A model generated the notes under the pieces. It was not told the origin of the DNA. It made no database searches and saw only the letters and a program-made list of their open reading frames with translations. From the IMG/VR virus record IMGVR_UViG_2645727948_000011: a DNA stretch of 64,000 nucleotides; one strand, given 5' to 3'. The stretch comes from a virus. Taxonomy: Duplodnaviria > Heunggongvirae > Uroviricota > Caudoviricetes. Every line of letters starts with the position of its first letter. Position 1 is the stretch's first letter. The position numbers and the translations under genes are program-made. This document shows positions 1,595 to 34,172 of the stretch, in pieces.

Positions 1595-2064
1595 GCCCTT
1601 ACGATGTAATTAAATGCGATATTTCGTGGACGGGTTTCACTCCCGCCAGTATTACCAATACTCCCTCGAGAATGAAGTGTCGGTGATGGAATCAAATTCC
1701 CTCCTGTATTTGAGGCATCAAGCCCCCGTCCTTGTGTGTATGTTTTTTTGAAAATTGTCGCCAGCTCCCATTCATCTTTTGTGTCGTAACCATCATTGGC
1801 TACAACAATATGTCGGTGCTTTTCCAGCATTCCTGTCTGAATGCTCAATAAAGCACGTCCAGCATCCACCCCGCGCCCATCATCCCAGCCGCGAATAAAT
1901 TCTCCCCGTAAATCCGGTAATTTATTGGTGGGATAAGCCTTTGCCAGATTTGGGTACTTTTCAGAAGAAAATGCTGCACCATTGCATTTCAACCACCCCG
2001 TTGGAGGTGTGGCTGAGGGCCACGGAACAGGTACGCCAACAGGCAATGCAGAGCCTTCCCCCAA
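1588..2064 (-). CDS. Silent alternative tail-fibre C-terminal cassette 2
   Basis: Same conserved N-block and C-terminal RPRNIAFNYIVRAA, distinct variable middle. Confidence 0.65.
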   Translation of the reverse strand: MGEGSALPVGVPVPWPSATPPTGWLKCNGAAFSSEKYPNLAKAYPTNKLPDLRGEFIRGWDDGRGVDAGRALLSIQTGMLEKHRHIVVANDGYDTKDEWELATIFKKTYTQGRGLDASNTGGNLIPSPTLHSRGSIGNTGGSETRPRNIAFNYIVRAA

Positions 2065-2081
2065 ACCAACGTTTTTATGCC
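2056..2081. other. Putative crossover site TTCCCCCAAACCAACGTTTTTATGCC
   Basis: Repeat of the 26-bp site. Confidence 0.5.
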
Positions 2082-2536
2082 GCCCTTACGATATAATTAA
2101 AGGCAATATTACGAGGACGGTTTTCATTAGCTGTTGGCACGACACGAGAGGCGTCGAATCCAAGGTCATCGGTTTTGCCTATATCAGTTGTGTTATTCGG
2201 CATTCTCGCAGATCGTGTTCCTGCATCATAAAAAGCCCCTCTGATTGCATCAAAAGACATACCAATCCCGCCATCTGCGAACCCCTCAATATTTCTTATT
2301 GCATCCCCCTGTGAAGATAATAATTGTCGCCCGGCATCCACACCACGTCCGTCATCCCAGCCACGAATAAATTCACCGCGTAAATCCGGCAATTTATTAG
2401 TAGGGTAAGCCTTTGCCAGATTTGGGTACTTTTCAGAAGAAAATGCTGCTCCGTTACATTTCAGCCACCCCGTTGGCGGTGTTTCTAAGGGCCACGGAAC
2501 GGGCACGCCAACGGGCAATGCTGAGCCTTCCCCCAA
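2075..2536 (-). CDS. Silent alternative tail-fibre C-terminal cassette 3
   Basis: Same architecture as cassettes 1-2. Confidence 0.65.
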   Translation of the reverse strand: MGEGSALPVGVPVPWPLETPPTGWLKCNGAAFSSEKYPNLAKAYPTNKLPDLRGEFIRGWDDGRGVDAGRQLLSSQGDAIRNIEGFADGGIGMSFDAIRGAFYDAGTRSARMPNNTTDIGKTDDLGFDASRVVPTANENRPRNIAFNYIVRAA

Positions 2537-2553
2537 ACCAACGTTTTTATGCC
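2528..2553. other. Putative crossover site
   Basis: TTCCCCCAAACCAACGTTTTTATGCC. Confidence 0.5.
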
Positions 2554-3014
2554 GCCCTTACGATATAATTAAACGCAATATTACGGGGGCGGGTTTCAGA
2601 TGCTGTACGAACTGAGCGAGAGGCGTCGAATGTCCAGTTATAAGAGCCATAACCCTCAATAATTTCCGTTTCCTTTAGGCCTGTAGATAATACTTGACCA
2701 TGTTGACTAAATGGCCCTGAACTAAGTACATCTCTAAAAAGCTGAGTACGCCCGAAAGAACCAACAATATTCTGAATTGCATCATTCTGTGCAGATAATA
2801 AATTACGGCCAGAGTCAATCCCCCGCCCGTCATCCCAGCCGCGAATAAATTCGCCCCGTAGATCCGGCAATTTATTAGTGGGGTAAACCTTTGCCAGTTT
2901 GGGATACATTTCAGAAGAAAATGCTGCTCCGTTACATTTTAGCCAGCCCGTTGGTGGTGTTTCTAAGGGCCACGGAACGGGCACACCAACAGGCAGTGCA
3001 GAGCCTTCCCCCAA
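2547..3014 (-). CDS. Silent alternative tail-fibre C-terminal cassette 4
   Basis: Same architecture. Confidence 0.65.
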   Translation of the reverse strand: MGEGSALPVGVPVPWPLETPPTGWLKCNGAAFSSEMYPKLAKVYPTNKLPDLRGEFIRGWDDGRGIDSGRNLLSAQNDAIQNIVGSFGRTQLFRDVLSSGPFSQHGQVLSTGLKETEIIEGYGSYNWTFDASRSVRTASETRPRNIAFNYIVRAA

Positions 3015-3031
3015 ACCAACGTTTTTATGCC
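3006..3031. other. Putative crossover site
   Basis: TTCCCCCAAACCAACGTTTTTATGCC. Confidence 0.5.
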
Positions 3032-3453
3032 GCCCTTACGATGTAATTAAATGCGATATTTCGCGGCCTGACAGCAACAAAATTTATACCATCACCTACA
3101 GAGTTACTGGTGAAATTAAATCGTGAAAATCCTGGCTGATTTCCGACGATGCCATCATGAAAATTAATTGCGTGCCCCGCACCATCGCCTATATTTCCGG
3201 CACGATGAGAAAAGTTTGTAGCCTCTTGGCTGCTTAATAATGCTCGCCCATTGTCCACACCTCGTCCATCATCCCAACCTCGAATAAATTCGCCCCGTAG
3301 ATCCGGCAATTTATTAGTGGGGTAAACCTTTGCCAGATTTGGGTACTTTTCAGAAGAAAATGCTGCACCATTGCATTTCAGCCACCCCGTTGGTGGTGTG
3401 GCTGAGGGCCATGGAACAGGTACACCAACGGGCAGCGCCGAGCCTTCCCCTAA
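3025..3453 (-). CDS. Silent alternative tail-fibre C-terminal cassette 5 (shorter variable region)
   Basis: Conserved N-block is in frame from about 3453 (the ORF track starts at an internal TTG at 3309 only because no start codon lies upstream); ends RPRNIAFNYIVRAA. Confidence 0.55.
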   Translation of the reverse strand, partial: LGEGSALPVGVPVPWPSATPPTGWLKCNGAAFSSEKYPNLAKVYPTNKLPDLRGEFIRGWDDGRGVDNGRALLSSQEATNFSHRAGNIGDGAGHAINFHDGIVGNQPGFSRFNFTSNSVGDGINFVAVRPRNIAFNYIVRAA

Positions 3454-9038: not shown

Positions 9039-12026
9039 ATGAGCTTAAGCGATCAGGTGGTAATGGCCACCAGCATAGAAACGCTGATCGAGCTGCTAAA
9101 GAACCTGCCCGATTATGGGCGGGTTTCGTATGTGGTGACAGCGAAGGGAGACGAGGTAAAAACAGCGTTTGATATCGTCGATGCCTCAGTTCTTTTGGTA
9201 TCCAATACTCTGGATGGGAAAATTAATCCAGACTATCCCCAGGAACTTCAGCCGCGCGACCGGACCCGCGCATCCAGCCTTCTTCAGGTTAACCAGATAT
9301 CCAAAGATTTGCGGCCTGCTCAGCTTACTGATTCCGGTTTATCCAGCCATGGTGCGCCGATAATTGGTGAGGACAATGCCGTTGAGTCAGGTAATGGACG
9401 GACCATGGGGATCATCAAAGCCTATCAGGACGGCAATGCGGATCGGTATCGTGAGTACCTGATTGAACATGCGACCGAATTCGGCATACGACCTGAAAAG
9501 GTTGAATCAATGACGGCTCCGGTACTGGTGCGCCGCCGGTTAACTAAGGTTGATCGCGTTCAGTTTGCCAAGGACTCAAATATTTCTGATCTTCAGGAAA
9601 TGGCAGCCAGTGAAAAGGCTTTTGTTGATGCCGACAGCATAACACCGGCGATGATGGCGTTGTTTAACCCGTCAGAAAGCGGAGATCTGCTTAGCCGCAG
9701 TAATGACGCGTTTATTCGCGGATTTATGACGCAAGTTGGTGCCACACAGGCGGCTGGCCTTGTAACTGAAGATGGGCGACCAACACGGCAACTTGTAGAC
9801 CGTATACAAAACGCGATCTTTGCCAAGGCATATAAGGATGCGCGCCTGGTAAGGATGGTTGCAGAAGAACCTGATCCGGACATGCGTAATGTTCTGACGG
9901 CGCTTAATGCGGCAGCCAATGATTTTGTCCAGATGCAGGCTTTATCAGGAGAAGCGCACAAGCAGGCTGTGACAACTATTGTTGATGGCATTGAGACAGC
10001 GGATAGCCTCGATAAAAAGGCGCTGGCGGCATTGAAAGATGCGGTAGACCTGGTAAGGCAATCGAAGGAGTCAGGCCAACATATTACCGATGTTATTGCT
10101 CAGGGGGATATGTTCAGCGAAACAGCCCCGGAAGTGAAAGCTCTCGCGTTGTTCATCGTCGCGAATAACCGTAGCGCGAAGCGTATGGCCACCGCCTTTA
10201 AATTGATGGCTCAACGTATCAATGATGAGTTACAGCACCAGGGCCAGGCGCTCGGGGATATGTTTGGCGGCGGCGATGTGTCGTTACAGGATATCCTTCG
10301 CCAGGTATCTCAGGAACTGGAAAACGAAGGTATGCAAGGGATATCCGGCGGTCTTTTCGAGTCAGCTTCCGGCGGTAGTTACAACGGTGTTGCTCCATAT
10401 ACCAGCTTGCTATTACATCGGGCATCCGGCATCAAAGACATTATTCATCTGATCAGGCTGCTATCCCGCACCGATCCCCAGGATGAGCAGCTTGTACAAG
10501 TGCTTGCGCATTTTGTCCGAATGCCTGTTGCCGACGTAAAAAAATGGTGCCGATTATTCGGTATCAGCAATTCGTTACTTCGCGGATTGTTAAATTACGC
10601 ATCCTCCCTTGGGCGCGACGGCTTTGATGAGATAGCGCAGGCGATAAAAAACGGAGATATGCCACCAGCTATTGACTGGTTTTCCATTCGCCCAACCAGG
10701 GTGAAAGCATTCCTTAGCGCGGCGCAATCAGCATCACCATTGGCAGAAATGGTTCAGAGGTTGTCGCTCATATTCACAGACCATACCGCGTTGGGTGATC
10801 TGACTCTGGACGAGATGAAAGAAGCCTCCATTCAGTGGGCCGATCAACAAAATGAGGTTAACTCTGACTTCTTGCCAGCATTCAGGAAGGCCGTTAGTAA
10901 AGCTGATGATGCCCGTGGAATTCTGAGGGCATTTAAGGCATTGCAAAGTCAGGTTAATAAACATGTCGGTGATATCGATGGGGTAACGGCGGAAGGCAGG
11001 GATATCCTTAAAGAGCACGGCATAACGCCAGAGTTTATTGATGAGATCAGGACTGATATGCAGCGTGAGGTCGTATCGTCCCTGCAAATCGTAGCCAGAG
11101 CGTTGGCGGATGCTAATCCGAAGAGTGCGGCCATTGTTAACCGGGTTATTGGTGATATTGAAGCATCGGAGGGCATGGGGGCGCTGAAACTCTTCCTTTC
11201 GCGAGCGTTTAATCCTAACGGCAATATTCTCCCTGGCATTATTGGTGAGGCTAAAAAGTATGTCAGTGAAGAAGAACTTTCGCAGCTTGACCAACTACTT
11301 AAGCGATTCTCATATAACCCGCAGACACGCTGGCAAATGAATCAGCGAAGTATGGGTTCGGTCCACGAGAAAGTGTTATCTGCCATGAACAGTGCGATCG
11401 CCAACTCATCCGTATCTGAAGAAAAAGCTCTTGAGTGGGCCGACTCTTTTATCACGGAAGAAGTGGAAGAAGCCCGCGCTGGACAGAATGGTGGGATAGA
11501 CCTGCGCAAGGAACTTGCTGATATTTATCGCCTGACCGGCGGTAAAATTTCGACCTTATCAAAGGTGGTTCACCACCAGGGAAGGGCATATGCAAATCTT
11601 AATGGTGTTGTTGCTGTCAATTTGAACGATGAAAATGCAAGTGCACTGTGGCACGAGCTGGGTCATCATCTTGAGTACAGTAACCCTGGTTTGTTAGAGA
11701 AAGCCCGGTCATTCCTGAAGGCCAATGTTGAAGGGGATAAGCCATCTTTCGTCAATATCGGTGGGCGTGGCAAGCCTGAATGGTGCTTCAGATCTCGATT
11801 GAGTAATATTTATATGGCGAAGGTATACCCGCCAGCCTCAGTAAGTAACACCGGGAAAATTCGGCAGAAATCACCGACTATTTCCAAAACGTCAGCAACG
11901 GAAGTATTCTCTATGGCTCTTCAGTTGTATCATGACAAAGAGGCCGCTGCCGCATCACTGATGAATGGTGACGGATTGCTGGAACTGTTATTAGGTGTGG
12001 CAAAGGAGCTAAATAATGCAGATTAA
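9039..12026 (+). CDS. ddrB: DdrB-like large protein
   Basis: 995-aa ORF downstream of darA. Confidence 0.5.
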   Translation: MSLSDQVVMATSIETLIELLKNLPDYGRVSYVVTAKGDEVKTAFDIVDASVLLVSNTLDGKINPDYPQELQPRDRTRASSLLQVNQISKDLRPAQLTDSGLSSHGAPIIGEDNAVESGNGRTMGIIKAYQDGNADRYREYLIEHATEFGIRPEKVESMTAPVLVRRRLTKVDRVQFAKDSNISDLQEMAASEKAFVDADSITPAMMALFNPSESGDLLSRSNDAFIRGFMTQVGATQAAGLVTEDGRPTRQLVDRIQNAIFAKAYKDARLVRMVAEEPDPDMRNVLTALNAAANDFVQMQALSGEAHKQAVTTIVDGIETADSLDKKALAALKDAVDLVRQSKESGQHITDVIAQGDMFSETAPEVKALALFIVANNRSAKRMATAFKLMAQRINDELQHQGQALGDMFGGGDVSLQDILRQVSQELENEGMQGISGGLFESASGGSYNGVAPYTSLLLHRASGIKDIIHLIRLLSRTDPQDEQLVQVLAHFVRMPVADVKKWCRLFGISNSLLRGLLNYASSLGRDGFDEIAQAIKNGDMPPAIDWFSIRPTRVKAFLSAAQSASPLAEMVQRLSLIFTDHTALGDLTLDEMKEASIQWADQQNEVNSDFLPAFRKAVSKADDARGILRAFKALQSQVNKHVGDIDGVTAEGRDILKEHGITPEFIDEIRTDMQREVVSSLQIVARALADANPKSAAIVNRVIGDIEASEGMGALKLFLSRAFNPNGNILPGIIGEAKKYVSEEELSQLDQLLKRFSYNPQTRWQMNQRSMGSVHEKVLSAMNSAIANSSVSEEKALEWADSFITEEVEEARAGQNGGIDLRKELADIYRLTGGKISTLSKVVHHQGRAYANLNGVVAVNLNDENASALWHELGHHLEYSNPGLLEKARSFLKANVEGDKPSFVNIGGRGKPEWCFRSRLSNIYMAKVYPPASVSNTGKIRQKSPTISKTSATEVFSMALQLYHDKEAAAASLMNGDGLLELLLGVAKELNNAD

Positions 12027-12324
12027 AATCGCAGCGCCATTAGGCGGAGATGCCATTATCGAATTTGATGATAATGAAGAAGTTTCCGGGCGTTTAAGCA
12101 TTATCTCCGGTGACATTACCGAGGACATGATCGCTGAAGCCATAGCTGGGGCAAATCCCAATAGCTATATGGGATTCGTTAACACCCTTGATGCTCCCGC
12201 AAGTGATGTTCTCCGAACGCTGCATCTTTACGCTGGCTGGTTTGTTGATTGGCCAGCAGTAGATGGTGGCGATGAGGACGACGACGATGATTTTGGTGAT
12301 CATGTAGACCAGATCGTATATTGA
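12016..12324 (+). CDS. Hypothetical acidic protein, last gene of the operon
   Basis: ATG overlaps ddrB end, AAGGAG 8 nt upstream; C-terminal Asp/Glu run. Confidence 0.45.
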   Translation: MQIKIAAPLGGDAIIEFDDNEEVSGRLSIISGDITEDMIAEAIAGANPNSYMGFVNTLDAPASDVLRTLHLYAGWFVDWPAVDGGDEDDDDDFGDHVDQIVY

Positions 12325-12326
12325 AG

Positions 12327-12353
12327 AAATCCCGCCAATTGGCGGGATTTTTA
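12327..12353. terminator. Bidirectional intrinsic terminator
   Basis: AAATCCCGCC-AATT-GGCGGGATTTTT perfect hairpin flanked by A and T runs between convergent genes. Confidence 0.8.
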
Positions 12354-12355
12354 CC

Positions 12356-13450
12356 TCACGAGAAACTCTTTTCTGATGTCAGCCAACAGTGCTCGTGCAT
12401 ATCTCTTGGTGGTTTTTCGACAAATGCCTCTTCAGCCACATCCTGCCAGGGGATTTGTTTAGCCCATTCAGCTATAGCGTTATGGTTTGCCGAGAATAAC
12501 GGTATTGTATAGGCCTTCAGCCAGTCTAATGTGCTGGAGTTGTGTTTTTTAGCGTGATGTTTCGCATGGTGTTTGGCGATCACGATCGTAGGCACTACCC
12601 ATTTACTACCGTCAGTCATTGTGAAGTGCATATTACGGGGAACAGATGACTTTTCCATCAACTCCCGAATCCCGGGGAATTTCCCCAAGATCAATCGGCG
12701 ATATTCATCGCTATTGCGCCCACCAAACTCTTTGGCTTTGAATTCAAGATATGCTTCAGAAACGAGAGGTGAATCCTCTGTGTTTAGAGTTATCGCCGTG
12801 AAAAAACCAGCAGGATTGTTTTTACTATGGGCCAACCGGTGATGCGAATCATAAAAGTACCCTTTCTCGCGTTCCGATGGTTTCGACAGCAACAGCAGGC
12901 GCGAGTCATAATTGGTTAAATTGCCAGTTATCACTGCATGAGCGCGATCGCTGATTTCCGCCGAGTTAATAACGATGAAAAGATCGTGCGGTCCAGTAAA
13001 ACCAGCCAGAGACTCTTCGTTATTCAGACAATAGGTTATATAGACGCATCCCCATGTTTCACTGATATGCACCAACCCTTTGTCAGGGTGTATTCTGAAA
13101 TAATTGCCAAGAAAAGGGTGTTTTTGGGTAACTCGCTCCCAATAACGGAACATATAGTCAATTATTGTTTTTCGACTATCGTTAATCGCAGGAGAAACAA
13201 CCACTGTACGGGAGCACGAATACAGTATTGTTTGCAGGATGCTAATCACTGCCACAATAGAGGTTTCCCCAATACCATGTGGTGTGGTGGCAGTGACTTT
13301 GGCTCCGGTGTTCTTTATCGAGTTAATAATTTTTGCTTGATGAGGTGTTAACTCAATATCAAGCAACTCTTTTGCTGCCAGTTCCCAATTGTCTTTATAC
13401 CGTTCTATCAGTGCTAACCAGGCAGATTCATTCTGTATACGATTAATCAC
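12356..13450 (-). CDS. Terminase-large-subunit (PacB) ATPase-domain paralogue with degenerate Walker A and B motifs
   Basis: Collinear similarity to PacB residues about 8-270 in this same window; Walker A GHGTGKS replaced by PHGIGET, Walker B IIDEAS replaced by VINSAE; no nuclease-domain region. Confidence 0.7.
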   Translation of the reverse strand: MINRIQNESAWLALIERYKDNWELAAKELLDIELTPHQAKIINSIKNTGAKVTATTPHGIGETSIVAVISILQTILYSCSRTVVVSPAINDSRKTIIDYMFRYWERVTQKHPFLGNYFRIHPDKGLVHISETWGCVYITYCLNNEESLAGFTGPHDLFIVINSAEISDRAHAVITGNLTNYDSRLLLLSKPSEREKGYFYDSHHRLAHSKNNPAGFFTAITLNTEDSPLVSEAYLEFKAKEFGGRNSDEYRRLILGKFPGIRELMEKSSVPRNMHFTMTDGSKWVVPTIVIAKHHAKHHAKKHNSSTLDWLKAYTIPLFSANHNAIAEWAKQIPWQDVAEEAFVEKPPRDMHEHCWLTSEKSFS

Positions 13451-14351
13451 TTTCCACCTCTTCCGTGGTGTTTTCTTGCAGTTCTGTTAATGCAGCACGA
13501 CATAGGTTCCGGGCATTGGCTATAGCCACACTTTTGACTTCATCCGTCATCGTGCAGGTAATGTACTGATCGAGTTCTTCAGCGCGGATGATGCTTTTGC
13601 CAATCAGAAACTGTATTTGCCATAGCAGATCGGCATCCATAATCAGAATTTCTGCCGGGCCTTCAGGGCCAGCCGGGAAGGAAACATAAGACTGTTTGCC
13701 CAGGCCGACAACTCGACAACTTGCTTCAAGAATTGCGCGCTTGAGGTCTGACTTTATAACGGAAACAGGTTGATTTTCACCAGTGATTACGCCGTTGACA
13801 TGGAAAGGCATGTAGCTTGAAATACGCTCCACTTTCCACACGCCAGCAAGCGATCCTTCATGCAGCACAATGGGGGTAACCGCGAGTTTCATCTCACCAT
13901 ATAACTGCTGGCAGATAGCTGGATTGCTGAATACATCTAAAGGCTCACATTCAAACAGCGGCGCAATCTGCATGAGGTCCATCATGGTCATCCCTGGGGT
14001 ACGAGCAGTAATGAATTTGCGCATACCAGTATCCATTGCGCTCCAGATTGCTACACCATGCTTTTTGCTCACTTCTTCAGTAAAGCCAAGGTGGCACATG
14101 ATGGTTTTTTCGATAGCCAGATCGGAGATAGAAACCTTTTCGCCAGGTACACCATCATTATTGATGGTCACTTCGACACTCTGGCCATTACGCAGGCGGT
14201 ATTGAATTGTTTTAGTATTTTGTGCTGCCATAGTCTTTTCTCTGCTTAAAAACTGATGTATTGCGCCTTCAGGTGGGTCAGGAATGTTTTCCCACCAGCG
14301 AAAGCAATATCTCGGGGTGTTCTGTTCGTTAAAAACGCGTTCCATTGCCAA
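13443..14351 (-). CDS. Hypothetical protein, upstream partner of the PacB paralogue
   Basis: Stop overlaps start of 12356-13450; start ambiguous (TTG 14351, ATG 14345 or ATG 14231). Confidence 0.5.
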   Translation of the reverse strand: MAMERVFNEQNTPRYCFRWWENIPDPPEGAIHQFLSREKTMAAQNTKTIQYRLRNGQSVEVTINNDGVPGEKVSISDLAIEKTIMCHLGFTEEVSKKHGVAIWSAMDTGMRKFITARTPGMTMMDLMQIAPLFECEPLDVFSNPAICQQLYGEMKLAVTPIVLHEGSLAGVWKVERISSYMPFHVNGVITGENQPVSVIKSDLKRAILEASCRVVGLGKQSYVSFPAGPEGPAEILIMDADLLWQIQFLIGKSIIRAEELDQYITCTMTDEVKSVAIANARNLCRAALTELQENTTEEVESD

Positions 14352-14433
14352 CTTTGGCGTTTTTTAGCGAGTTCGTGCTTTTGTTGGCGTTTGGACCACC
14401 GCTTTTCTTTCAGTCGTTTTTTACTCATAAACT

Positions 14434-14922
14434 CTAAAACGGAATATCGTCTTCAAAGTCCATTGGAGGTTCGTTATTGGCGCTGCTCTGAGGTTTGCCA
14501 CCACCGCTGTATTGCTGGTGGTTTTGAGGTTGGTTTGACTGCCCCCAGCCATTTGAGGACTGTGAATCGTCGCGGCGAGCGCCGATCATTTGCATGGTGC
14601 CGCCCTGGCTGACGATAATTTCCGTCGTGTAACGTTCTACACCGGCGTCATCTGTCCACTTACGGGTTTTAAGTTTCCCTTCGATGTAGACCTGAGAACC
14701 TTTTTGTAAATACTCACTCGCAATTTCAGCAAGTTTTCCGAACAAAACGACTTTATGCCATTCTGTTTGCTCTTTCTGTTGGCCCGTTTGCTTATCGCGC
14801 CATGATTCATTCGTTGCGATGCTGAGTCTTCCGACTGCGCCGCCATTTGGTATATACCTGATCTCCGGGTCTTGCCCCAGGGTACCAATCAGGATGACTT
14901 TGTTTACACCGCGTTGTGCCAC
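14434..14922 (-). CDS. ssb: Single-stranded DNA-binding protein
   Basis: OB-fold SSB sequence with acidic tail DFEDDIPF. Confidence 0.95.
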
Positions 14923-14941: not shown

Positions 14942-14958
14942 AAATTAATTAGAGCAAT
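14942..14958. promoter_or_regulatory. C1 repressor operator
   Basis: AAATTAATTAGAGCAAT, 16/17 to reverse complement of consensus ATTGCTCTAATAAATTT. Confidence 0.75.
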
Positions 14959-31236: not shown

Positions 31237-31253
31237 ATTGCTCTAATAAATTA
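31237..31253. promoter_or_regulatory. C1 operator overlapping a TTGACA promoter for coi-c1
   Basis: ATTGCTCTAATAAATTA 16/17; TTGACA at 31231-31236 immediately upstream. Confidence 0.75.
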
Positions 31254-32687: not shown

Positions 32688-34172
32688 TTATTCATTAAGC
32701 CATGCCAGAGCTTCATCAACCTGCGCTTCGTCTTCGACGCTAAGCACTTCATCCTGGGGAACATAATCCGCCAGCATAGCGAAACAATATGTATCCCAAT
32801 GGTCTGGTGAGTGCAGGTTGAGTTTTTTCTTCATATCCTCCTTACTCATCACCTTCCATTGACCTGCGGAGTTAATCCCTACAGGGATTTTCGACGCTTC
32901 CTCAATAGTTTCATTACCCTTATCCAGTCTCATACGACCTGATTTTACGGCCTCTGCGGCTTGAACGTTGGCATAAGCACGCTTATCAAAGTACAGGCTC
33001 TTATCTTCACGGCTATGCATCTTTTTACCCCAGCGTATACGCTGTACGGTAATACCATAATACTCGTACATCAGATCCGCCGTTGCTTTACCCAGGCCAT
33101 CGCCGTCTATCGCTATGGTGATATTTGGGAATCGCTCAGGATTACATTCTGCGAAAATTTTGGCGGCAAGCTGCGTTTCTGTAACGTCTGTGTATTCCAG
33201 CATTCGATAGTTGATTACACGGCGTTTATTTCTCTGGCCGGACACCATCATGATATTGATAACGGACTTATCCCGTCCCGTACCACCAGCAACGTCCACA
33301 CATGCAAGCCAGCCCCATCCTTTGGCAATCTTGACTTTCCGCCGCGTCGCACGTTCAACCTCATCACGTCCAAGAAGGAAGCCATCCTGTGATTTAGGGA
33401 ATAGTCCGCGTACTTTAATCATGTACATAGGGTTATCACGCCCGCCGTACTCCGCCAGCTTCATTTTGATAAATGCTGGCGTTACCAGCGGTGATTCCTC
33501 ACTGTTAAGCGTGATCGCCGTATAAACGCCATCAGGGTTACCAGGACGCTTGGCCAGTTTATGGTGAGTATCGTAGAAATAGCCGCTTGGGCGTGTAGGC
33601 TGTGACAGTAATAAGATGCGGTTATCCTGTCCGGTAAGAGCACCAGTGATGATACCGAAAGCTCTATCACTGACACCGGAGGCTTCATCGATAATATACA
33701 GAAGATGATCTGCGTGTTCACCGGCGAGAGCTTCTTCACTTCCCAGACGAAAGCCCTTCGGTACTACAGTCCATACACCTTTACCAGTAACCTCATAGAA
33801 AGCGGTTTCTGTCAGAACAAAATAATCAGCAAGCCATGGAAAACGGCTGGTGGCAGTAGCCCAGTTTATCTTGATGTACTTGAATATACCGGTCATTACC
33901 TGCTGAATTTTGTTCGCAACGATAATGGCGCGGGCACCGGGATACATGATTATGAACAACATGATCATGATAGAAGTCATGTCTGATTTCCCGGTACCGT
34001 GACCAGACGAAACAGATGTCTTGCTACCCTGTTCCTGCACAGACTCAATAATCAGATCCTGCTGCCAGGTAGGTGTTTTGCCGAACAAAACATCAGCGGC
34101 CGCAATCCAGTCATAACGATATAGCGCCACCAGCTCGCGCCAACGTGGATCCGTTACGCAACTTCTGGCCAT
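32688..34172 (-). CDS. pacB: Terminase large subunit PacB
   Basis: 494 aa; Walker A GHGTGKS, Walker [10 protein letters not shown]; C-terminal nuclease-like region. Confidence 0.9.

Follow-up and report, generated by a model that had tools for sequence, protein, structure and literature searches.

The terminase large subunit (TerL) is among the most conserved of phage proteins and a major target of bacterial pattern-recognition immunity, through the sensors Avs1-3 and Upx. Interference with packaging by proteins that bind terminase has precedents in Ppi of the Staphylococcus aureus pathogenicity islands (SaPIs) and Rpp of the phage-inducible chromosomal islands (PICIs). Among the immune sensors, EcAvs2 and Upx need only the TerL ATPase domain for activation; the EcAvs2 interface is sealed by a bridging ATP that contacts the ATP/Mg bound by the terminase, and SeAvs3 recognises the nuclease domain as well as the bound ATP and residues of the active site (PMC13601566; PMC11564622). 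Stand-alone TerL-ATPase-like proteins, T4 vs.8 and Ksap2, have no known function, and the authors who describe them suggest an anti-defence one (PMC13601566, PMC11564622). Here we describe a degenerate paralogue of PacB, the TerL of P1-like elements, encoded in a 64,000-nucleotide (nt) stretch of viral DNA (IMG/VR record IMGVR_UViG_2645727948_000011, called the window below). The window is from a P1-like phage-plasmid (Punavirus), with ddrB, hxr, ssb, lyz, c1-type operators and pacA/pacB all present.

The locus adjoins the dar/ddr operon and lies in the hxr-ssb interval, which has been named 'variable region 2 / RD-2' of P1-like phage-plasmids (PMC9603915, PMC6906374). In P1, isaA, isaB, ssb and hxr were all found to be non-essential by CRISPR interference (PMC10695390). 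A preliminary description of the locus had read the gene as a catalytically dead terminase paralogue of no described function. That reading holds, and our literature search found no paper describing a paralogue of PacB or TerL, a pseudo-terminase, or a function for this protein.

A PacB derivative without catalytic residues or nuclease domain

The paralogue is 36% identical to the PacB of the same window over 266 collinear residues, with 58% positives (BLASTP, E=3e-55); the preliminary description was right about the collinearity and slightly high in putting the identity at roughly 40 percent. The motif substitutions that it reported were confirmed by pairwise alignment and motif tables. The Walker A sequence GHGTGKS of PacB reads PHGIGET in the paralogue, with Lys replaced by Glu and Ser by Thr, and the Walker B sequence IIDEAS reads VINSAE, with Asp replaced by Asn and Glu by Ser. 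The RNase-H-like nuclease domain is missing, as had also been seen, since the alignment to PacB stops near residue 272. Still present are the Q-motif (as HQ), the P-loop glycines and part of the C-motif, and the 'ANK' motif of catalytically intact ("live") relatives is lost. An AlphaFold model built with an input of 15 homologues reached a predicted local distance difference test score (pLDDT) of 88.6 and a predicted template modelling score (pTM) of 0.81, and its top Foldseek matches in the Protein Data Bank (PDB) were the ATPase domains of the Sf6, P74-26, D6E and T4 large terminases, with helicase-type ATPases of superfamilies 1 and 2 (SF1/SF2) at lower rank. Alignment and model together confirm a PacB derivative with the predicted TerL ATPase fold kept, without the residues for ATP binding and hydrolysis and without the nuclease.

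The family phrog_5902, annotated as 'unknown function', matches the paralogue over its full length (359/359 profile positions, E=3e-186). Public records label the protein 'hypothetical protein' or, wrongly, 'terminase large subunit'. The latter label is carried by two P1-like GenBank entries, MH422554 (our locus L002, at 1957-3051) and MH445380, and we regard it as a misannotation because the catalytic motifs and the nuclease domain are missing.

To place the paralogue among its relatives, homologues were sought exhaustively with phmmer against 1.84 billion representatives, yielding 724; a word-indexed search gave three clusters only and missed PacB. Both G-K-[ST] and D-E are kept by 118 of the 150 best homologues, whose median length is 484 amino acids (aa), and both motifs are lost in 13 of the 150 rows (about 11 distinct clusters at 50% identity), which are 244-444 aa long and without a nuclease domain. 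Across nine aligned degenerate proteins, the position of the Walker A Lys is occupied by E, R, H, R, M, T, C, I and T, with no consensus replacement, and the Walker B acidic pair and 'ANK' are lost in all nine. The Q-motif reads QQ in 8 of the 9 and HQ in the window protein, and the P-loop glycines and part of the C-motif are kept. In a tree built by neighbour joining only, for which long-branch attraction is possible, the nine form one clade beside the PacB-type terminases in 60/60 bootstrap replicates, and this dead clade is equidistant from all live PacBs. It diverges faster than live PacB (median pairwise identity 39% vs 48%) and has lost the basic charge of the motor, with isoelectric points (pI) of 5.3-8.9 as against 8.5-9.6 in live proteins, which is as expected for a binding protein in conflict and not for a DNA motor. 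Identity between dead and live proteins is 0.36-0.47 in the N-terminal helices and in PacB residues 181-260 (C-motif and lid), and 0.17-0.30 elsewhere.

Six copies of the gene with 1-9% synonymous divergence all keep a 1095-nt open reading frame (ORF), with ratios of nonsynonymous to synonymous substitution rates (dN/dS) of 0.10-0.56, which are higher than those of the neighbouring isaA (0.07-0.16) and ssb (<=0.10). The 5,426 complete E. coli genomes contain 101 copies, each of full length; the 36 degenerate loci from IMG/VR are likewise all intact, and intact homologues persist at 33-53% identity in several lineages. These data indicate that the paralogue is stably maintained and is neither a pseudogene nor a one-off.

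Loss of the Walker motifs in TerL homologues has occurred at least twice, since a 268-aa ATPase-only degenerate TerL (protein P0041, at 644-1450 of locus L027) falls in a different TerL clade. Two full-length TerL homologues, P0036 and P0051, carry intein-like insertions in the Walker A P-loop, between GHG and GKS.

The preliminary description had missed a domain fusion at the C-terminus. Residues ~263-364 of the AlphaFold model fold independently as a beta-hairpin and three helices (pLDDT ~80-88), and this module matches the C-terminus of an unrelated family of 511 positions, phrog_17928, in which the fold again occurs as a fusion. A profile of the module finds at least 209 clusters of stand-alone proteins of ~100 aa, with the consensus VTMPDGSKWxVP..IAxNRAxxYA..DWAxNNMNWxDV..QEGWVNGEK, in hosts that range from Brevibacillus and Citrobacter to marine sediment organisms; searches of Pfam and the PDB gave no relative of the module or of this family. 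The window module is 32% identical to the stand-alone protein P0202 (E=6e-10) and has diverged at the NNMNW and GWVNGEK motifs, and the module of the orthologue at locus L062 is 50% identical to the same protein (E=4e-34). In lambdoid prophages (L023-L025, e.g. L023 6001-6342), the stand-alone genes come last in the early-left operon, in the stretch from the cI/cro switch to xis-int. By these matches the last ~100 aa of the paralogue are a copy, now fused and diverged, of an early prophage protein that is widespread in stand-alone form. Other architectures in the dead clade are the ATPase domain alone (252-266 aa) and the ATPase domain with a different tail (P0010, 444 aa), beside the window type with the module.

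The ssb-isaA operon and its distal cassette

The gene directly upstream encodes a homologue of P1 IsaA (gp017), with close clusters at 94-97% protein identity. Both ORFs of the preliminary description are present as placed, but its length of 302 aa for the upstream protein is probably too great: phrog_2326 matches aa 44-302 of the ORF (E=8e-149), and the first residue of the D6-group IsaA homologues (44-46% identity) is the Met equivalent to the window's ATG at 14231, most likely the real start, for a protein of 262 aa. The P1 RefSeq IsaA (320 aa with a GTG start; L001 3638-4600) is probably over-extended, and the P1-style N-terminal extension is broken by a stop codon in the window. The GTG start of the paralogue overlaps the isaA stop by 8 nt (GTGATTAA) and has a GAGGTGG Shine-Dalgarno sequence just upstream, which makes the translational coupling suggested in the preliminary description plausible.

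IsaA was rightly said to be unlike PacA (best BLASTP E=37), and no recognisable toxin or enzyme fold was found in it. The further claim that the two genes form an operon of their own that mirrors the small/large terminase gene order was not supported, since the pair reads as the distal part of a C1-repressed ssb operon. We also rejected a pair of the small-subunit/large-subunit terminase kind, given that the paralogue has different partners in different lineages and that IsaA has no relation to PacA.

The C1 operator directly upstream of ssb is the equivalent of P1 Op21/Ossb, and the P1 annotation at ssb gives Ossb and the promoters P1ssb/P2ssb. A scan of the minus strand within the ssb-isaA-paralogue operon showed neither a sigma-70 consensus promoter nor a terminator, and matches to a late (Lpa-type) promoter box upstream of isaA and the paralogue were at chance level only. 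Because the operator is present and internal signals were undetected, we infer that a C1-repressed ssb-isaA operon ends with the paralogue, whose transcription would start early, at the ssb promoter, ahead of the late pacA/pacB. A pattern search of the entire window found thirteen C1-operator-like sites with <=3 mismatches, vs 0.3 expected by chance; the sites (e.g. 62702-62718, 46504-46520, 31237-31253) map the immunity-controlled early operons of the element.

In plasmids with isaA only, the isaA stop abuts a hairpin terminator that is shared with the window, and in the window ~1.09 kb containing the paralogue alone is inserted exactly between the two. A synonymous change from AGC to AGT in the penultimate codon of isaA provides the paralogue's GTG start. 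These junctions mark the paralogue as an optional cassette added behind isaA, at the operon's 3' end. The hairpin, which was not among the outputs of a simple terminator scan, is likely a bidirectional terminator.

P1 (NC_005856) has the order isaB - IS1 - isaA in the hxr-ssb interval, and its DNA starts to run collinear with the window only at 13427, continuing rightward at 95% identity. P1 and P7 are both without the paralogue, and the P7 interval carries nmpC and odaA. The preliminary description had placed an IS1 insertion in P1 at about this position, and this is correct, but IS1 does not interrupt the paralogue there; P1 lacks the gene and has the unrelated isaB. We considered whether P1 isaB might be an IS1-truncated 3' half of the paralogue and rejected this, as there is no DNA or protein similarity. 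The paralogue has gone unstudied because P1, the laboratory model, is naturally without the gene, and P1 is for this reason a ready null background for complementation.

The IMG/VR loci, recovered with a four-sequence alignment, number 74 (38 with live PacB and 36 with the dead paralogue). Degenerate homologues with enough flanking DNA are all on P1/D6-type phage-plasmids with a C1 repressor and a Cre-like recombinase, and intact PacA/PacB are co-resident with every dead paralogue on long-enough contigs. A PacA-like gene is directly upstream in 35/38 live loci vs 0/36 dead loci, and at no IMG/VR locus is the dead paralogue adjacent to pacAB or in a late operon; on the further contigs examined, too, no dead paralogue follows a PacA-like gene. 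IsaA is instead directly upstream at 34 of the 36 dead loci, in both the P1 and D6 groups, and isaA overlaps the start of the paralogue in most copies. Other upstream partners, by lineage, are a radical-SAM protein, SSB and the DnaB-like helicase Ban; in the window itself no second PacB-like copy was found behind ban. In one P1-like lineage (L007 7336-8792, also L008-L010) the dead paralogue overlaps by 4 nt a gene for a Ref-like nuclease (PF16786, the family of P1 Ref), an arrangement suggestive of translational coupling to a RecA-dependent nuclease of recombination.

The operon occurs in four forms in P1-like plasmids, namely ssb-isaA, ssb-DUF2829-isaA, ssb-isaA-paralogue and ssb-DUF2829-isaA-paralogue, and in L016 and L020 the DUF2829 gene is inserted exactly at the ssb-isaA spacer. 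In the D6 group the order DUF2829, IsaA, paralogue recurs at a different genome position, after cre...dut. Tad2/AcrIIA7 (DUF2829) is reported as an anti-Thoeris gene in 56% of the elements of the P1 group and 93% of those of the D6 group (bioRxiv 10.1101/2025.09.12.675607).

Of 768 PLSDB plasmids that have a PacB-type gene, 162 (~21%) carry a full-length paralogue. The P1-group variant is found in 100 of the 5,426 complete E. coli genomes (~2%), as against 335 with isaA. Close copies of the paralogue in the P1 group number 120, the same as the plasmids covering both genes, and IsaA without the paralogue is about twice as frequent as with it. We take the family to be a previously undescribed set of conserved pseudo-terminases with a domain fusion and a conserved partner, and this gives an evolutionary identity to a 'hypothetical protein' of ~2% of complete E. 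coli genomes and ~21% of PacB-bearing plasmids.

Table 1. Coordinates of the paralogue, its operon and the comparator pacB in the window.
Feature	Coordinates	Strand	Basis
Dead PacB (TerL) paralogue, 364 aa; GTG start at 13450, TGA stop	12356..13450	-	ORF list
ATPase-like domain, aa 1-262 of the paralogue	12665..13450	-	Motif tables; Foldseek TerL ATPase matches
C-terminal module, aa 263-364, with His-rich KHHAKHHAKKH helix	12356..12664	-	phrog_17928 C-terminus; stand-alone homologues
isaA-like gene, 262 aa from ATG at 14231 (most likely start)	13443..14231	-	P1 IsaA homology; phrog_2326
Mechanical isaA ORF, 302 aa, TTG start at 14351	13443..14351	-	ORF list
ssb-isaA spacer, ~200 nt	14232..14433	-	DUF2829/Tad2-like insertion point in other P1-like plasmids
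ssb, first gene of the operon	14434..14922	-	ORF; Ssb annotation in P1 and relatives
C1 repressor operator ATTGCTCTAATTAATTT, one mismatch to consensus	14942..14958	-	Pattern search; P1 annotation
Hairpin AAATCCCGCC-AATT-GGCGGGATTT, between converging hxr and paralogue	12327..12350	.	Sequence
pacB, intact terminase large subunit, 494 aa, with GKS, DE and nuclease domain	32688..34172	-	Comparator; parent paralogue

On the other side of the hairpin, hxr (12016-12324, plus strand) closes the dar/ddr anti-restriction operon; the P1 annotation makes its product a possible Xre-like repressor. The window's Hxr is extremely acidic, with 102 aa, a pI of 4.05, a net charge of -20 and the run GGDEDDDDDFGD, a composition that is odd for a DNA-binding repressor and looks more like that of a DNA mimic.

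Possible roles of the paralogue

Among the roles suggested in the preliminary description, a decoy or mimic is proposed here as the most attractive on genomic context and recent literature. Our tentative choice for the single most likely role is that of a non-catalytic TerL mimic directed against terminase-sensing immunity. The paralogue cannot be a motor or a nuclease and would therefore act through binding. Made early, before pacA/pacB, it would as a structural mimic of PacB occupy a factor that would otherwise engage the real terminase. The likeliest target would be a host immune sensor of the TerL ATPase domain, either an Avs2/Avs3-type receptor of the signal transduction ATPases with numerous domains (STAND) or Upx. 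The ligand-binding features that the Avs and Upx sensors read are exactly those lost in the paralogue, and a protein without bound ATP/Mg and without the nuclease domain may fail to make the activating contacts and thereby dampen the abortive infection that terminase sets off; in this activity it would be partnered by IsaA and the fused C-terminal module. We favour a mimic because of the Tad2-like neighbourhood, the predicted early timing, the behaviour as an accessory cassette and the faster evolution of the clade. In its most specific version, which we consider unlikely as a whole, the paralogue would be the first terminase-derived immune decoy, an early and ATP-blind protein that fills the pockets of Avs2/Avs3/Upx with the help of IsaA and the module and does not activate them. 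If true, such a decoy would protect P1/D6-type phage-plasmids from abortive infection and would suggest that T4 vs.8 and Ksap2 join the same arms race.

Several points weigh against a mimic of this kind. The Tad2-like gene is absent from the window, so that the association is through relatives only, and the SSB, DnaB-like Ban, Ref-like nuclease and dUTPase partners are replication and recombination genes; the neighbourhood may simply reflect a tolerance of early-operon ends for added genes. The early co-transcription with ssb is itself read from sequence. An early TerL-shaped protein could equally well trigger Avs2/Upx, as T4 vs.8 does, and Upx tolerated most Walker B mutants (PMC13601566). 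No terminase-derived protein is found among 268 catalogued anti-defence proteins, and scans of the paralogue and IsaA with Pfam, NCBIfam and PADLOC gave nothing usable.

A modulator or competitor of packaging is also possible, if somewhat doubtful. The paralogue would keep the PacB surfaces for PacA, the portal or PacB itself and form non-productive complexes, so that either pac cleavage is held back while replication produces concatemers, or a P1/D6-type element or satellite that is co-resident or superinfects has its pacase poisoned in a dominant-negative manner. Its origin from PacB, its constant co-residence with PacA/PacB, the conservation between dead and live proteins being best in the N-terminal helices and PacB residues 181-260, and its predicted synthesis before the late pacase would all suit such a role, as would the co-occurrence of P1-group and D6-group elements in some hosts (bioRxiv 10.1101/2025.09.12.675607). 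The gene is dispensable, however, with P1 and P7 packaging normally without it and ~79% of PacB-bearing plasmids having no full-length copy, and therefore it would not be a core packaging regulator. It is moreover never next to pacAB or in a late operon, an unspecific dominant-negative would harm the element's own pacase, and the dead clade does not track a competitor. If C1 were the sole control, the gene would be silent in the lysogen, which argues against superinfection exclusion in particular. Less probable again, and in our view quite unlikely, is an accessory of early DNA metabolism, that is, an ATPase-dead RecA-fold scaffold that works alongside SSB, Ban, Ref and IsaA to assist replication or recombination; it might, for instance, bind DNA ends or concatemers. 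The upstream ssb, ban, Ref-like nuclease and dut across lineages, often in overlapping or closely spaced frames, and the SF1/SF2 matches in the fold search are consistent with it; against it, the basic charge with which the TerL ATPase grips DNA is lost, the partners are heterogeneous and do not make up one conserved pathway, and the gene is an optional cassette at operon ends, with SSB non-essential in P1 (PMC10695390).

The conserved partner is also what would be expected of a sensor or partner in a defence or exclusion system of the phage-plasmid, in which the TerL-like domain recognises the packaging proteins of an invader and IsaA or the module is the effector. This we regard as improbable, since neither the paralogue nor IsaA matches any PADLOC defence-system model at E<=1, IsaA has no recognisable toxin or enzyme fold and is two to three times commoner without the paralogue than with it, and C1 repression implies no expression in the lysogen, when defence is needed. 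A neutrally decaying relic of a pacB duplication would account for the lost and variable catalytic residues and for a dN/dS above that of the neighbouring genes, but it is effectively excluded by dN/dS values well below 1, by the lack of any frameshift or truncation in 101 E. coli copies or 36 IMG/VR loci, by intact orthologues down to 33% identity in several lineages, by the confident predicted fold and by the acquisition of new domain fusions. As a possible TerL mimic, the pseudo-terminase clade offers a concrete candidate for the means by which temperate phage-plasmids deal with terminase sensing; alternatively, it could reveal a new level at which packaging is controlled or elements compete.

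Comparison with known systems

The closest described protein is PacB itself, as known from P1 and present in the window, which is homologous to the paralogue over the whole N-terminal ATPase domain, has the same fold and is encoded by the same element. PacB differs in having the Walker Lys-Ser and Asp-Glu and the nuclease domain, in being preceded by pacA in the late pacAB unit, and in being essential, whereas the paralogue is optional, is predicted to be early under C1 control and bears an unrelated C-terminal module. The family phrog_5902 is the same family as the paralogue, and its record in PHROGs v4 gives no relation to PacB, motif loss or domain fusion. The isaA-IS1-isaB region of P1 has the same IsaA in the same hypervariable interval as the window but carries IS1 and the unrelated isaB in place of the paralogue, which the papers on this region do not mention.

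SaPI Ppi and PICI Rpp are non-enzymatic and act on terminase by binding, as a packaging competitor would, but they bind the small subunit, are encoded by satellites and are not derived from terminase. Tad2/DUF2829, an anti-Thoeris sponge, is the immediate same-strand neighbour of the IsaA-paralogue pair in many relatives, with short gaps, although the protein is unrelated to the paralogue.

A further parallel is with T4 vs.8 and Ksap2, which like the paralogue are small, accessory and lineage-restricted TerL-ATPase-like proteins with no nuclease domain, and which activate Avs2 (PMC13601566, PMC11564622). Homology of the paralogue clade to T4 vs.8 was rejected (hhalign probability 0.3%), and vs.8 is thus an independent offshoot of a different TerL lineage. 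The two also differ in that vs.8 keeps a canonical Walker A (GKS) and Walker B (IIDE), whereas in the paralogue the nucleotide site is destroyed and another domain is fused.

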